In this document: in pieces, positions 1 to 5,290 of the stretch | How positions within the stretch are numbered: the first letter of the stretch is position 1 | Layout: every line of letters begins with the position of its first letter | From: Aliarcobacter sp. | GTDB taxonomy: Bacteria; Campylobacterota; Campylobacteria; Campylobacterales; Arcobacteraceae | Direction: 5' to 3' | DNA length: 64,000 nt | Assembly: GCA_028690445.1 (NCBI GenBank) | Contig: JAQVBE010000009.1 | Coordinates: 10,874 to 74,873 of the forward strand | Position numbers and translations under genes: made by a program | Notes under the pieces: generated by a model | Seen by the model: only the letters and a program-made list of their open reading frames with translations | Database searches by the model: none | Told to the model about the DNA's origin: nothing

Positions 1-602
1 TCAATAGGAATCATTAGTGTTTGGTCTAAAGATTCCTTATATTTTTTATCAATTGATATTAAAAGTTTTTGATTAGTTTTATTTTTTTGATATAGAAAGC
101 CACTCCTATCAAAGCTAGTCCTATTCAAAAGTTCTAAAATCGTTTTTAGAGGAGCAGCTATATTGGGAGATTTTCGGCCAATATGAATAATAAATTGTCG
201 TAATAGTTTTTTGTTTTCTAATACCTGAAATAGACTTTTATTTTTCTCAAAAGCATACATTGAAAGATATTTGATAGCTAGAAATTTTATAGATATTGAT
301 CTTCCTGCAGGAAGAGTTTTTAATCTTCCTTGACCAAAAGTCATATAAAGATAAGTTAATCGTTTAGCTTCTTGAATTAGTTCAGAACAAAGTATATTGT
401 TGAAATAAAGAATATTTTTTCCATTACTATATGGTGTTAAATCCCAAGCACAATCACCATAGTGTGAAAGAGCTTTACCGTCCCTTATTGAAATGATTTG
501 GTTGATAGGAGGTTCTATATGACCATTCTCATCATTATGTTTATAAACGGGAGGTGTATTATCACTATAGTTTAAAAATGGCTGTAAATATATAGAATTC
601 AT
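1..602 (-). CDS. N-terminal 200 aa of a third element gene (IntB-like putative recombinase), partial; not in the ORF track
   Basis: Hand translation is open from ATG at 602 (ATGA overlap with the stop of the 972-aa gene) to base 1: MNSIYLQPFL...SHYGDCAWDLTPY...DQTLMIPI. The YGDxxWD and QTxxIP motifs recall the third gene of integrase trios. Confidence 0.75.
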   Translation of the reverse strand, partial: MNSIYLQPFLNYSDNTPPVYKHNDENGHIEPPINQIISIRDGKALSHYGDCAWDLTPYSNGKNILYFNNILCSELIQEAKRLTYLYMTFGQGRLKTLPAGRSISIKFLAIKYLSMYAFEKNKSLFQVLENKKLLRQFIIHIGRKSPNIAAPLKTILELLNRTSFDRSGFLYQKNKTNQKLLISIDKKYKESLDQTLMIPI

Positions 603-3517
603 GCTAACCTTTCTAATTCATCTAAATCTTTTATCCAATCAAGCCAATATGGTGATAATAAGCCATCATTATAAACTTCTATTTTTGTAGTTGTAATGGT
701 TTGTTTTATTGAAGGTTCTTTTTTAATCATTTCATTAAAAATAGCTTGAATACGGTTAATCCATGGAGTCATTTTTTCTTCATAAAATGATTCATCTTCT
801 GCTTTATCATAAGCTATATTTTCAATGATGTACTGTAAACTTAGGAGTTTTCTAATTTCTTCTTGTTCAGGAAATGTTATAAAGTGCTTGCAAAAAATAC
901 AAGTTTTTGAATCATTACAATTAGCATTAATAGGACTATCTTCATGAAAATTTTTTGGAATTAAATTTTTATCATTTTCACATCCTCCCATTGAACTTTG
1001 CTGTTCTTGCAGAATAGGTTGTTGACTTATTGTATGTTCGTGAAGAGAGTTTAAGAAATTATTTATTTGTAAGCCTAATTCTTTAGAAGTGTATCCATTA
1101 TAGTTGTTGATAAAGGTTGATTTATTATTTTGTAGTACAGATAATGCTATTTTCATATTATGACTATTGAGTGCATCTTTCCCACCATCTTTCCGAATAT
1201 TTCTAGATGTGATGAAAGGTAGTTTATCATCTAAGAAATTTCGTGTGTCATTAAAAATTCTACTACTATTTCCACCTGAAAACTGGGATCTTGTTGTGCT
1301 AGCACTTTTCCCGAATCCAGCTGAAAAGAATAAATATTTGAATTTATTATCATTCAATACAAATTTTCTTAGTAGTAAGAATTTTTTGAAACTTGACATA
1401 AATGCTTTTGGAATTGTAAAGCGGACGGGTTTGTTGCCAGCACGAGGTTTAATAGTTATAAACTCTTTGCGTTCTAAATGCTCAGTTTCATACTCATCTA
1501 TATCAGACCATTCATAAGTACCAAGTATTGAGTCATTGGTACTTGTTAGATAAAGCATACAGATAAACCATGCATCTAAAGCTTTTTTGCCTAGTTGAAG
1601 TCTTTTTTCATGAAATTTATCTGAGTTTAGTTCTTCTAGTTTTTGTAGATTTTTTATTTTTTGTTTTATATATCTATTAGGATACTTGACTTTATTATTT
1701 TTAGCCAAGTTAATTAATTCAGAATCCATTAAAATGGTTCCTTCTGTAGGGTCTATACAATTAATTCCATATTTATTCATTTGGTGATATGGAATTATTA
1801 GATGTTTTGCTAATCCCATAATTATAGCGTGTCCTCTTGGAAGTTGTATTTTGTAAGGGTAGTCTTTTCCCTTTAATAGAAAATCTGCAATTTGATCAAA
1901 TAAATGAAAATAGAAACCAAATGTATAAGAAAAATCTTCTTGAGTGACTTGTTCCATATTTGAAAAAGCATTAGATGATGGAGCTTTTTGTGGAATTATA
2001 TATGAATTATAGTCTTTAGTGATTTCTGATTCATTAACAAGAAACATTCCTGCAAGTAAACTTATCATTCCTTTTTGTTCTATTGAGCAAACAGCATGTC
2101 TTTTTTCTCCTGATTTTAATAGTCTGTGTAAATGAATAGAATAATGATAAAACATATTATTTGCTTCTTTGATAGTCTTAGGAATATAGTCTCCCATCCA
2201 CAAAGCTGCTAAAATCATTCTTGGAATTAAACTCGTGAGTATTGAATGGTTAATCCCTTCACAAGCATTGAGTAAACCTTTAATATATATAGTTCTATCA
2301 TCCTTATATCCATCAGGGTTTACAAATAACCTATTTTTACTATTTGTTTTAGCATTAAGATTATAGGATGAATACATTATATGGGAAAGTGTAAAATAGT
2401 TTACTATTTTAGTTTTTGTGTTAGTAACTGAAATCCCCAACCTCTTATATATAAGTGAATGGTTTGCAGTTTGTATTTTTTGAATAAGTAAATCTTTATC
2501 GATATATAGAATATGTATTTCAGTTAAACCTTTAGAAGTATATTCTTCAATTTGATTTAGCAAATTAAGTTTCCATTCAAATAGGTTTTTTGATAAAAAT
2601 TCAGAATTAAATCCTGCTTTTTTAGAAACAATTCGGGGAGTAATATCTACTTGTTCTTTCACTAATTGTTTAAAAGCTGTTCTACACTGTATTCCATCAA
2701 TCCCTCCCTCTTTTTGCCACTTTCGATCTGCAGCTTTTATCTTAGTTTTAATATCTAATTGCCAAGGGTAATTGGGTTTTTCTATATTTGTTGCTGCGTA
2801 TCCTGCTTCTGTGCATATTGTGTTCAAGTAAGGACGTTCCTGATTTTTAATATACTTATCTAAAATCTTATTAATTACCTTTAGCTCTTTACCTCCTTTT
2901 CTTTGCCATTTTTTGTCTGCCTTATCAATTGCATTTGCAAGACGTATTTGCCATGGATAGGCTAATCGATTTGAACTTAAAAAATTTTGGTATTTGTTTA
3001 TTCCAATTGCTATGTCTTTTTTTATCGGACGTTCTCCATTTTTTATCATTTTTTTTAAAAAATCAAGACTTGTTCTAGCATCTAAACCTCCAAAATTCTC
3101 CCATCTTTTCTGTTCTTTGATTACTAGAGCATAAAGCTCTTTTTGCCAGAAGTATCTTAAATTAGCTTTTCTCAGATACCATGCCTTTACTCCTGCTTTT
3201 TCACAAATTATTTTTGGTTCAATCTTACTACCACTTTTTAGTGCGTCTTGAAGAGATTTGGAGAGCTTTTTAGCTATTTCACCTCCTCCCTCTTCCCAAT
3301 TGTATGCTTCTTTATTTATAAGGGATGACAGTTCCCTTTTCCATGGCGTGTTTAAACATAATTTATGTAAAATTCTTGATGAAACACCTTCAGTGAGTCT
3401 TCCTATCATCTGATGATTAGGCTTTTGAGTACCTTCTTTGACAATATTAAATAATGTCTCATAACATTTTCTGTGTTCTTCGCAGCTAAATATGATTTTC
3501 TCAGATGGTTTCAACAT
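599..3517 (-). CDS. 972-aa degenerate tyrosine-recombinase-like protein (SE CDS2-like) with N-terminal tandem repeats and a C-terminal Cys cluster
   Basis: ITSRNIRK in place of HxxR, NNY near the catalytic Tyr position, C-terminal C..NC..KTCIFCKH; 17-nt overlap with the integrase stop. Confidence 0.7.
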   Translation of the reverse strand: MLKPSEKIIFSCEEHRKCYETLFNIVKEGTQKPNHQMIGRLTEGVSSRILHKLCLNTPWKRELSSLINKEAYNWEEGGGEIAKKLSKSLQDALKSGSKIEPKIICEKAGVKAWYLRKANLRYFWQKELYALVIKEQKRWENFGGLDARTSLDFLKKMIKNGERPIKKDIAIGINKYQNFLSSNRLAYPWQIRLANAIDKADKKWQRKGGKELKVINKILDKYIKNQERPYLNTICTEAGYAATNIEKPNYPWQLDIKTKIKAADRKWQKEGGIDGIQCRTAFKQLVKEQVDITPRIVSKKAGFNSEFLSKNLFEWKLNLLNQIEEYTSKGLTEIHILYIDKDLLIQKIQTANHSLIYKRLGISVTNTKTKIVNYFTLSHIMYSSYNLNAKTNSKNRLFVNPDGYKDDRTIYIKGLLNACEGINHSILTSLIPRMILAALWMGDYIPKTIKEANNMFYHYSIHLHRLLKSGEKRHAVCSIEQKGMISLLAGMFLVNESEITKDYNSYIIPQKAPSSNAFSNMEQVTQEDFSYTFGFYFHLFDQIADFLLKGKDYPYKIQLPRGHAIIMGLAKHLIIPYHQMNKYGINCIDPTEGTILMDSELINLAKNNKVKYPNRYIKQKIKNLQKLEELNSDKFHEKRLQLGKKALDAWFICMLYLTSTNDSILGTYEWSDIDEYETEHLERKEFITIKPRAGNKPVRFTIPKAFMSSFKKFLLLRKFVLNDNKFKYLFFSAGFGKSASTTRSQFSGGNSSRIFNDTRNFLDDKLPFITSRNIRKDGGKDALNSHNMKIALSVLQNNKSTFINNYNGYTSKELGLQINNFLNSLHEHTISQQPILQEQQSSMGGCENDKNLIPKNFHEDSPINANCNDSKTCIFCKHFITFPEQEEIRKLLSLQYIIENIAYDKAEDESFYEEKMTPWINRIQAIFNEMIKKEPSIKQTITTTKIEVYNDGLLSPYWLDWIKDLDELERLA

Positions 3518-5066
3518 TTAAATTCTCACTATTTTGGTTAATAAAGGCTGACTGTGATAGCCATTGAAATAGTTTATCTCCTCGTGAATCATATGCAGAG
3601 TATCGGTCTGATTCATTTTGAGAATACTCAAGATATTGTTGTGTTGTTTTTTCATCAGTATGTCCGGCAAAGTCTTTTAGTATTTTCATTCTTTCATTTA
3701 ATGAGAGTTTGCTCTCCTGTTCCGTTCTTATATTTAAATTCATTAAGCAAGTAGCTCTTAGATAATGAAATTTAAATTTAAATTTAACTTTTTTTGAAAT
3801 ATTATTTGTTATGTAAACTCGTATAGAACCCCCATTTGACATATTTTTATAAAGTTCTTTATTAGGGTCACTTTTCGCTATATAGTATGGATTGAAGTTC
3901 TGCGTTATGAAGACATATTCATCAAGCTCATTCTCTTGTGGATATTTGATATTTAGTCTTCTCTGTGTAGCACGTTTAGATATAATATATGACTGTACTA
4001 TATTCATAAGCCAGCCAGGAACTTGCAAATTGTATCTTTTTTCAAGACCTTTAGCATCAATAAGACTTCCTTCTCCAATTGGAATATAATAAAGTTCATT
4101 TGATACGAATTGTTTATTATATTTATGCCAAATATTAAGGCTTTCCGTAGAGAAGTTTTTTGGGAGCTCATTGATAAAATGTTGTAAGCGTAGTGTGAAG
4201 GTAGTGTCCATTCTTGCAGCCGTAAAAATAGAGAATAGAAAAGAAATCATTATTTCAGGTTGTCCTTGGCTATTTAAAAGTTCAAAGAGTTGTATTTGAT
4301 GTTCTTGTGTCAAAGGTTTTGTGTTTCCTCCATCATTTATGTATCCAACATCTTTATTATATGTTCCACGAATTTTATTCCCTTCATTTGTTTCGACTAT
4401 TAATCCTTTATTATTATTTATTGGTATAAATGCAGCATCAACTTTTCCTGGCATCGAAATACCCTTTCCCAAGTGTAAGAAATTATTGCCAAAATAATCA
4501 TTTACAAATTTATAGAATGAGGTTATTGGATATAAAAGCTTTTTTGCGTAACGAGGTTTGATTTCCTGTTTATTAACTCTTTCTTGCAAGTAATCTCGAT
4601 ACTTGATATTAGGTCTACTAAAAGGACGTTTAGCAACTTTCCAGAAAGGCATCTCTTCTCGTATACTTGGATTACGTTCATATATTAGGTCAAGTTCATC
4701 ATCTCTTTCATCACAAAAAAGTTTATATTTTTGTAATGCTTGAGAATGTTCTTGAATCGTTTTTGAAGGAACTCTTTGATCTTCATTATAAGCAGTATCA
4801 TCTTGAATTAAATGTATAAGGTATAGATTTGCTTCTATCCAAAGAGTATGATCACGGTTCATTACAAATGTGAAATGAGAATAGTATGAAGGGTCATAAT
4901 TCACATGCTCTATCCAATATGTATCAAAAAAAGGTTTCTTATAATAAAGAGGTTTATCTTTCTGATTAAGAACAGGTAGGTAGTTTATACTATATTCAGA
5001 TGTAGGGATAAACAAACGAATATTTGATGATATTTTTTGATTTAGAAGATTATCGTTTAGTTTCAT
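3501..5066 (-). CDS. Site-specific tyrosine recombinase/integrase (IntA-like)
   Basis: Catalytic motifs TAARMDT (R), DAKG (K), FHYLRAT (HxxR), AGHTDEKTTQQYL (H...Y). Confidence 0.92.
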   Translation of the reverse strand: MKLNDNLLNQKISSNIRLFIPTSEYSINYLPVLNQKDKPLYYKKPFFDTYWIEHVNYDPSYYSHFTFVMNRDHTLWIEANLYLIHLIQDDTAYNEDQRVPSKTIQEHSQALQKYKLFCDERDDELDLIYERNPSIREEMPFWKVAKRPFSRPNIKYRDYLQERVNKQEIKPRYAKKLLYPITSFYKFVNDYFGNNFLHLGKGISMPGKVDAAFIPINNNKGLIVETNEGNKIRGTYNKDVGYINDGGNTKPLTQEHQIQLFELLNSQGQPEIMISFLFSIFTAARMDTTFTLRLQHFINELPKNFSTESLNIWHKYNKQFVSNELYYIPIGEGSLIDAKGLEKRYNLQVPGWLMNIVQSYIISKRATQRRLNIKYPQENELDEYVFITQNFNPYYIAKSDPNKELYKNMSNGGSIRVYITNNISKKVKFKFKFHYLRATCLMNLNIRTEQESKLSLNERMKILKDFAGHTDEKTTQQYLEYSQNESDRYSAYDSRGDKLFQWLSQSAFINQNSENLNVETI

Positions 5067-5107
5067 GTATTTGATCCCTTATTTATCTTATTTATTGTAT
5101 CAAATAC

Positions 5108-5144
5108 ACTATTAATTTACTAACAAGTAGTAAATATTAATAGT
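5108..5144. repeat. Imperfect inverted repeat between the element end and the integrase start
   Basis: ACTATTAATTTACTA-acaag-TAGTAAATATTAATAGT (15-bp arms, one with a 2-nt insertion). Confidence 0.6.
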
Positions 5145-5164
5145 AAGCTAACAGGTGTCATTGA

Positions 5165-5290
5165 AACTCTTAAAACTCCAAAATTTATATTATTTGGATT
5201 TCTATATTCTGCAAATGAGAAATGAAAACGGCTTTCTAACCAACCTAAATTTGATGTTCCCATATTTTCTTTTGGTAATTTTTTTAACAT
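5165..5290 (-). pseudogene. 5' fragment (42 codons) of a pirin-family gene cut by the element
   Basis: ATG at 5290 with AGGAG RBS, overlapping the dioxygenase stop. MLKKLPKENMGTSNLGWLESRFHFSFAEYRNPNNINFGVLRV matches the pirin N-terminus (GWLxSxxxFSFAxY...FGxLRVxNDD), then reads unrelated sequence to TAG at 5120. Confidence 0.88.

Follow-up and report, generated by a model that had tools for sequence, protein, structure and literature searches.

A probable SE-family integrative element with a modified Tfp in the pirin gene of an Arcobacteraceae bacterium

Strand-biased circularizing integrative elements, abbreviated SEs, are represented by the prototypes SE-6283 and SE-6945 of Vibrio alfacsensis, and a curated example is carried on plasmid p1_PM101005 of Stutzerimonas stutzeri, whose proteins WP_052649168.1 and WP_045424213.1 are listed as Tfp and Srap, respectively (Additional file 3 of Idola et al. 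2023). SE-6283 targets bcp and carries a bcp homologue. The only survey of SE host range found these elements confined to Gammaproteobacteria and treated this narrow range as a defining oddity; Tfp and Srap homologues have been reported in the SE papers from Gammaproteobacteria only, with none in Alpha- or Betaproteobacteria. GInts, another class of multi-recombinase island, have been reported more widely than SEs, but not from Campylobacterota, and full-text literature searches recovered no paper connecting SEs with Arcobacter or its relatives. Here, we describe a locus in a 64,000-nucleotide stretch of an Aliarcobacter sp. assembly (contig JAQVBE010000009.1 of GCA_028690445.1; hereafter the window). 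Window positions 1–5157 very likely constitute the left, recombinase-bearing end of an SE-family element, inserted site-specifically in a chromosomal pirin gene of an Arcobacteraceae bacterium.

Core genes and their homology to SE proteins

The core genes of the element overlap one another, are all encoded on the minus strand and begin 91 bp inside the element end. Their features in the window are as follows.

3501..5066, minus strand: intA, encoding a 521-aa tyrosine recombinase with a complete R-H-R-H-Y set, a homologue of the curated S. stutzeri SE IntA
599..3517, minus strand: tfp (CDS2), encoding a 972-aa homologue of Tfp WP_052649168.1
599..2524 (about aa 332–972; stop codon 599–601 included), minus strand: conserved core of tfp, the region matched in profile searches
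2525..3478 (aa 14–331), minus strand: N-terminal extension of Tfp, with five tandem Srap-like repeats of about 65 aa, specific to this lineage
1..602, minus strand: first 200 of the 663 codons of intB, cut at the window start, encoding a large tyrosine recombinase; the identical full-length gene is present in contigs L001–L006, L013 and L014

The start of tfp overlaps the end of intA by 17 nt, and the intB frame opens at position 602 in a 4-nt ATGA overlap with the tfp stop codon, remaining open for 200 codons to base 1. G+C content at the core genes (approximately 0.28–0.31) is near that of the remaining window. The rest of the module was recovered from metagenomic data. Looking up the exact sequence of the 972-aa protein yielded 12 contigs of metagenome runs, and in all six that were read (L001–L006) identical genes for the 521-aa and 972-aa proteins are followed by a 663-aa gene, of which the 200-codon window fragment is the start, and then by an overlapping 128-aa gene. 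A further contig (L013) holds the element in the same chromosomal surroundings as the window, with genes for HisZ, an aminotransferase, MarR, YceI and LigB. In total, the same element occurs in eight contigs (L001–L006, L013 and L014) from at least eight sequencing runs, and the tfp and intB genes are 100% identical between the window and at least eight other contigs. The order IntA-Tfp-IntB-Srap is retained in all 83 related loci examined.

Each of the four proteins is homologous to its counterpart in the curated S. stutzeri SE. BLASTP alignments gave 24% identity for IntA (461 aa aligned, E 6e-20), Tfp (438 aa aligned, E 6e-33) and IntB (653 aa, full length, E 2e-48), and 40% identity for Srap (53 aa aligned, E 1e-5; E 8e-9 against the Srap of a Vibrio module). 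These values are no lower than the 20.5–26.6% mutual identity of the prototypes SE-6283 and SE-6945. In all-against-all comparisons with the Stutzerimonas, Vibrio and Cupriavidus modules, each protein matched only the one in the corresponding position. When the 972-aa protein was searched against plasmids by tblastn, matches came from Vibrio, Stenotrophomonas, Pseudomonas, Stutzerimonas, Cupriavidus, Paraburkholderia, Burkholderia and Caballeronia; the match on p1_PM101005 is the listed Tfp itself (WP_052649168.1), with the small protein listed as Srap (WP_045424213.1) two genes downstream. A word-indexed protein search returned only five clusters for Tfp, and an exhaustive profile search was required: from among 1.84 billion representatives, a profile built from the 972-aa protein together with four close relatives retrieved 660 cluster representatives, mostly of 610–650 aa and covering profile positions of approximately 330–970, one of them from Colwellia. 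General family databases are uninformative for these proteins. Pfam and NCBIfam gave sub-threshold recombinase matches only for the three window proteins, among them a Phage_integrase match on the C-terminus of IntA; Pfam returned nothing for full-length IntB and Srap, and a PDB sequence search with IntB was likewise empty.

Catalytic residues were scored across 74–76 family members from three proteobacterial or campylobacterial classes. IntA residues R285, H434, R437, H469 and Y478 are invariant in 74 homologues, and IntB residues R302, K331, H446, R449 and Y482 are invariant in 76 sequences, giving the pattern R-K-H-R-(H/Q)-Y. IntB also has four conserved cysteines after the tyrosine, of which three are invariant and one (C599) is present in 73 of 76 sequences. 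The structure predicted for IntB by AlphaFold2 (pLDDT 84) matches that of Cre recombinase across both domains, with a TM-score of approximately 0.5–0.59 normalised to Cre. The 972-aa Tfp has N at the Arg-I position, which is never R in the family, and R at the His-I position. Arg-II (R775) is kept in 73 of 74 members and the tyrosine (Y806) in all 74, at canonical spacing, as is a four-cysteine cluster after the tyrosine (C846, C867, C873 and C876; 74/74). Residue conservation thus shows IntA and IntB to have the make-up of complete tyrosine recombinases and Tfp that of a recombinase-like paralogue lacking Arg-I; Tfp could nevertheless be catalytic, since its tyrosine is invariant and Arg-II is kept. 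Foldseek searches with the Tfp model gave only matches with E above 0.7, which are meaningless.

The N-terminal part of Tfp sets the window lineage apart. Residues 14–331 form five tandem repeats, and a profile of 25 repeat copies matches the Srap family at its N-terminal domain (hhalign, probability 88% and E 2.8e-6). AlphaFold2 models the region (aa 10–320) as all helical, with pLDDT mostly 80–90 and lower in the first repeat. The long form is restricted to the closest relatives, namely two Aliarcobacter elements (about 966 aa) and one metagenome contig (890 aa); Tfp proteins elsewhere among the relatives have 606–670 aa and lack the extension. The lineage of the window element is predicted to have gained five Srap-like repeats at the N-terminus of Tfp.

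These results bear on an initial annotation made from the window alone, which had described three overlapping minus-strand genes just inside an element end and matched them to the SE order intA-CDS2-intB-srap. All three genes were found as described, and the proposed order was borne out by four proteins that are both homologous to and collinear with those of the curated SE. The intact catalytic motifs ascribed to the 521-aa protein proved invariant, the degenerate motifs and Cys cluster of the 972-aa protein were located, and the YGDxxWD and QTxxIP motifs of the third gene were found as YGDCAWD (aa 48–54) and QTLMIPI (aa 194–200), in columns conserved in the IntB family (Y48 nearly invariant, W53 and Q194 conserved, P199 invariant). 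The small fourth gene that had been suggested as a check is the 128-aa Srap homologue of the identical contigs.

Element ends and the pirin integration site

The left end of the element and its surroundings comprise four features.

5148..5157, minus strand: left terminal inverted repeat (motif C), CACCTGTTAG, a 10-mer that also ends the elements in L007, L013 and L022
5158..5163, minus strand: 6-bp crossover (spacer) at attL, reading CAATGA in the window and AAATGA both in the empty site (L015/L016) and in other copies
5120..5127, minus strand: second, subterminal occurrence of the end motif (CTTGTTAG), lying 20 bp inward of the terminal repeat, with the two copies starting 28 bp apart
5164..5290, minus strand: 5' portion of the host's pirin gene, the target that the integration disrupts, with an intact pirin at the same position in L015/L016

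As the outermost base of the terminal repeat is position 5157 and the 6-bp crossover follows it, the element end placed at 5164 by the initial annotation was right to within a few bases. The subterminal motif CTTGTTAG recurs at the same spacing in L007, L013 and L022 and is a candidate binding site for a recombinase or accessory protein. A promoter scan at the element end performed no better than on shuffled sequence. The elements in L022, L101, L104, L106 and L107 terminate on the right in CTAACAGGTG, the exact inverse of this repeat at the left end.

Comparison of occupied and empty chromosomes defines the target. The pirin frame, read from 5290 on the minus strand, breaks after codon 42 (FGVLRV), where intact alleles go on with LNDDIVH. 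In L015/L016, an intact pirin of at least 206 aa lies beside a 100%-identical LigB gene, and this empty site reads GAGTTTT AAATGA TGATATTGTT. The pirin site is thus occupied in some genomes and empty in others. In the other occupied copies the left junction runs from AAATGA directly into CACCTGTTAG; in the window it runs from CAATGA into CACCTGTTAG. Comparison of positions 5158–5170 places this change at the first base of the window spacer, which is C rather than A, and C is also the first base of the attR spacer CTTCAA; the six bases at the window attL could be a mosaic of two spacers, or simply decayed.

The right junction in pirin was predicted beforehand as CTAACAGGTG-N6-TGATATTGT, and metagenome contigs were scanned for this pattern. 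Two of the four matches are true junctions (L101 and L104), reading CTAACAGGTG CTTCAA TGATATTGTTCAT with pirin continuing in frame; the other two (L102 and L103) have no pirin downstream and were rejected as chance matches. The same CTAACAGGTG CTTCAA junction is present in L106 and L107, and attR leads into the 3' part of pirin in L101, L104, L105 and L106. AAATGA stands at both attB and attL, and CTTCAA, which is not derived from attB, stands at attR; TGATATTG comes next after AAATGA in the empty site and after CTTCAA at attR, and the target has lost no base. These junction sequences fit the pattern expected of SE integration.

Two related elements extend the comparison. An Aliarcobacter butzleri element (L007), with an IntB 54% identical to that of the window element, has the same insertion position and the same left end; approximately 900 bp of non-coding sequence separates its left end from intA (L007 4598–5507), compared with 91 bp in the window. 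In A. butzleri GCA_048983895.1, the right repeat is degenerate (ATAATAGGTA, matching at 7 of 10 positions; L105 10839–10862), though CTTCAA followed directly by TGATATTG is kept, and this copy may be immobile. A more distant relative in Sulfuricurvum (IntB 47% identical) is complete in L022 (6419–20951; 14,533 bp), where it splits comM; it has a perfect 10-bp inverted repeat, CACCTGTTAG to CTAACAGGTG, with AGAATC on both sides.

By analogy with SE-6283 and SE-6945, IntA and IntB, aided by Tfp and Srap, would pair the two ends of the element, and strand exchange across the 6-bp spacer would yield a circular copy. This circle would then integrate at attB, such that the six target bases would remain beside the left end and the six bases from the previous site would be deposited beside the right end.

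Cargo, hosts and distribution

Cargo genes and a replacement pirin occupy the remainder of the element in the metagenome contigs. In L001–L006, the cargo lies on the opposite strand to the core genes, and no conjugation or transfer genes were seen. In L001, it includes a type I restriction-modification system, along with a PtuA-like ATPase and two proteins that match no family. At the right end, 141 bp from the repeat, is an intact pirin gene of 233 aa, 73% identical to the host pirin. This variant forms its own cluster, which is present in A. butzleri too, and the right-end pirin module, at 93–100% identity, is joined to three different defence cargos at one chromosomal site.

L001 7350–14617: type I restriction-modification system and PtuA-like ATPase
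L106 1–9783: MmeI-like restriction-modification enzyme, Fic, SLFN/AlbA_2, DUF2971 and helicase
L007 12542–21995 and L105 1–9785: SIR2-HerA, DUF4238 and nSTAND3

The element is accordingly annotated as a carrier of predicted anti-phage defence genes, and the variety of cargo at a single site suggests module exchange between elements. The element of A. butzleri GCA_048983895.1 spans 20,167 bp. The Sulfuricurvum element lacks a replacement comM, and target-gene replacement is therefore not universal among these elements; its cargo includes a second, shorter srap-like open reading frame (ORF) of 91 aa, 45% identical to the Srap of the window lineage (L022 17865–18140), which may be the remnant of another element. 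In the 64-kb window, Rfam detected no family at gathering score (no tRNA, rRNA or riboswitch).

The host assignment to Campylobacterota made in the initial annotation is upheld by PurA, which places the bacterium in Arcobacteraceae through clustering at 90% identity or above with Arcobacter cloacae, Arcobacter sp. L and Aliarcobacter sp. When one genome per species was scanned for the IntB motif, 138 loci were obtained. The closest are from Aliarcobacter, Sulfuricurvum, Arcobacteraceae, Sulfurimonas, Poseidonibacter and Campylobacterales, and next come many Gammaproteobacteria and a single Paucibacter. A neighbour-joining tree groups the Campylobacterota-associated IntB proteins in one clade, which is nested among lineages from Gammaproteobacteria. 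The host therefore lies outside Gammaproteobacteria; the reported SE range describes a distribution and is not a mechanistic criterion.

SE-type Tfp-IntB-Srap modules were also observed on betaproteobacterial replicons of Cupriavidus, Paraburkholderia, Caballeronia, Burkholderia and Paucibacter; on plasmid pHG1 of C. necator H16 (L019 1–8697), intA is split by a RIT trio. Modules of the Campylobacterota clade are further present on five contigs of metagenome-assembled genomes (MAGs; L025, L026, L029, L030 and L031), with G+C of 0.26–0.30. The MAG labels Gracilibacteria, Elusimicrobia (Elusimicrobiaceae), Flavobacteriaceae and 'H. pylori PMSS1' were rejected as host evidence. In L031, the only such contig with testable flanks, the flanking ORFs are equally long under genetic codes 11 and 25, so these contigs are probably mis-binned.

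Alternative explanations and comparison with known systems

The initial annotation left two readings open, an SE far beyond the host range reported for these elements or a new sister class. Of these, the former holds, because each of the four core proteins has a homologue, at the same place in the gene order, in a listed SE, and with high probability the window element is a genuine SE-family element beyond the reported range; homology and gene order support this assignment. Several observations weigh against it. The right end, srap and two thirds of intB lie outside the window and are supplied by identical or related metagenome contigs, and the contigs bearing attR could not be physically connected to the window copy. 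The CTTCAA at attR is common to elements whose core genes are only 54–62% identical and could therefore be borne by the element, as part of a right-end module, rather than being a donor footprint. The 10-bp terminal repeat is below the 13–19 bp reported for SEs. The AlphaFold2 model of the Tfp core, built from five sequences, has pLDDT below 50, so that its recombinase fold is predicted from sequence motifs. The reaction as a whole, including a circular junction (attS) and strand bias, would be attributed to this element by analogy. The window attL, finally, differs from L002, L013 and L015 by a 1-nt deletion (one T) and a substitution beside the end.

One alternative is a sister class of SE ancestry that moves like an ordinary island, by double-strand excision leaving an empty site and subsequent reintegration. 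Empty pirin sites are present in the population, the identical six bases on both sides of the Sulfuricurvum element are what classical tyrosine-recombinase integration gives, the Campylobacterota IntB proteins form their own clade, and Tfp, with its invariant Tyr and Arg-II, could be catalytic. However, the empty sites may never have been occupied, and the 6-bp segments flanking the pirin insertion differ (AAATGA and CTTCAA) with no target base lost, an outcome given by SE integration and not by classical recombination between identical overlaps; the Campylobacterota clade is also nested inside, not outside, gammaproteobacterial SE diversity. Such a sister class is considered unlikely. Equally improbable is that the window copy is an immobilised remnant, with intact recombinase genes and ends that are damaged or, on the right, lost. 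The changes at the crossover edge of attL, the degenerate right repeat (7/10) of the related A. butzleri element and the position of the window copy's right end out of view would agree with such a fate, but the three visible genes are uninterrupted, tfp and intB are the same to the base in those other contigs, and the 10-bp terminal repeat is intact in the window.

It is very improbable that the element instead belongs to the GInts (ginABCD), RITs, GMTs or Tn554-type elements, or represents the integration module of a prophage or an integrative and conjugative element (ICE). GInts, RITs, GMTs and Tn554-type elements likewise combine several adjacent tyrosine recombinases with a small accessory protein, and the literature describes a resemblance among Srap, GinD and TnpC. 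Yet BLASTP gave no significant match to the GinB, GinC or GinD protein of the GInt that p1_PM101005 carries alongside the curated SE, nothing beyond a 19-residue box-II match was found against the RIT trio of pHG1, and IntB matched none of 50,697 phage records by tblastn; in these comparisons the proteins stand apart from those of GInts and RITs and from phage integrases, and RIT and prophage recombinases were among the alternatives raised in the initial annotation. The recombinase-like protein lacking Arg-I is encoded by the second gene here and by the third in GInts. Tn554 has no Tfp, and the plasmid search output, in which 10 further genera went unnamed, named neither Staphylococcus nor Enterococcus. 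GMTs consist of three genes with Phage_Integr_2 and StbA-like domains, and Pfam found neither domain in the module proteins.

What is new is a supported SE-family element in a further phylum, with a modified Tfp, and a reaction mechanism proposed from homology and junction sequences. The same four-gene machinery is found in environmental and food-borne Arcobacter-group bacteria and on betaproteobacterial plasmids, and host dependence therefore cannot explain the SE range. The Campylobacterota clade adds natural variation in Tfp, the least understood component, through the Srap-like fusion and the invariant Tyr, as well as a clean pair of empty and occupied sites that bears on the copy-out model and a case of SEs moving defence systems, not resistance genes. 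We are inclined to regard SEs as a family that spans several phyla and has betaproteobacterial members as well as a deep Campylobacterota clade, in which the Arcobacter-lineage Tfp would have become fused to five Srap DNA-binding modules, and as exchangeable carriers of defence islands that knock out a host gene and bring its replacement. The fusion would imply shared DNA sites of action for Srap and Tfp.

Among the described systems, prophage and ICE integration modules are set apart by the failure of IntB to match phage sequences and by the neighbouring genes here, which are defence systems. RITs and GMTs share the principle that adjacent, co-oriented recombinase genes define the mobile element. 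RIT proteins have 330–420 aa, and the class is characterised by three adjacent recombinases of ordinary size (approximately 300–450 aa), in contrast to the 521, 972 and 663 aa found here. GMT islands (GmtY, DNA_BRE_C; GmtZ, Phage_Integr_2; GmtX, StbA-like) likewise carry defence genes as cargo and in some cases a homologue of the gene they disrupt, but have three genes rather than four and use inverted-repeat target sites; they are separated from the window element by description and by Pfam. Tn554 of staphylococci (tnpA-tnpB-tnpC) resembles it in site specificity and, according to the literature, in a 6-bp footprint, but has no Tfp counterpart, and no BLAST-level similarity was seen in the plasmid collection. 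GInts (Bardaji et al. 2017) are similar in organization, having three recombinase-like genes and a small fourth gene at one island end, one recombinase-like protein without the first arginine, variable cargo and site-specific insertion; they differ in the lack of detectable similarity to the GinB, GinC and GinD proteins tested and in the place of the Arg-I-less protein, which is third (GinC) there and second here.

SEs, as known from SE-6283 and SE-6945 of V. alfacsensis and from S. stutzeri p1_PM101005, are the closest match. SE hosts are Gammaproteobacteria, and the present host belongs to Campylobacterota; known SE Tfp proteins have approximately 640 aa, compared with 972 aa and five Srap-like repeats here; SE terminal repeats are imperfect and 13–19 bp long, that of the window lineage perfect and 10 bp; and SE cargo consists of resistance genes, in contrast to defence systems in the window lineage. 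Both have four overlapping core genes at the left end, catalytically complete IntA and IntB with a Tfp lacking Arg-I, short terminal inverted repeats and no transfer genes seen. The 6-bp crossover sequences, target-derived at attL and foreign at attR, would fit the SE arrangement, although CTTCAA may be element-borne. SE-6283 and the window lineage further share a specific target gene with a carried replacement, bcp in the former and pirin in the latter.

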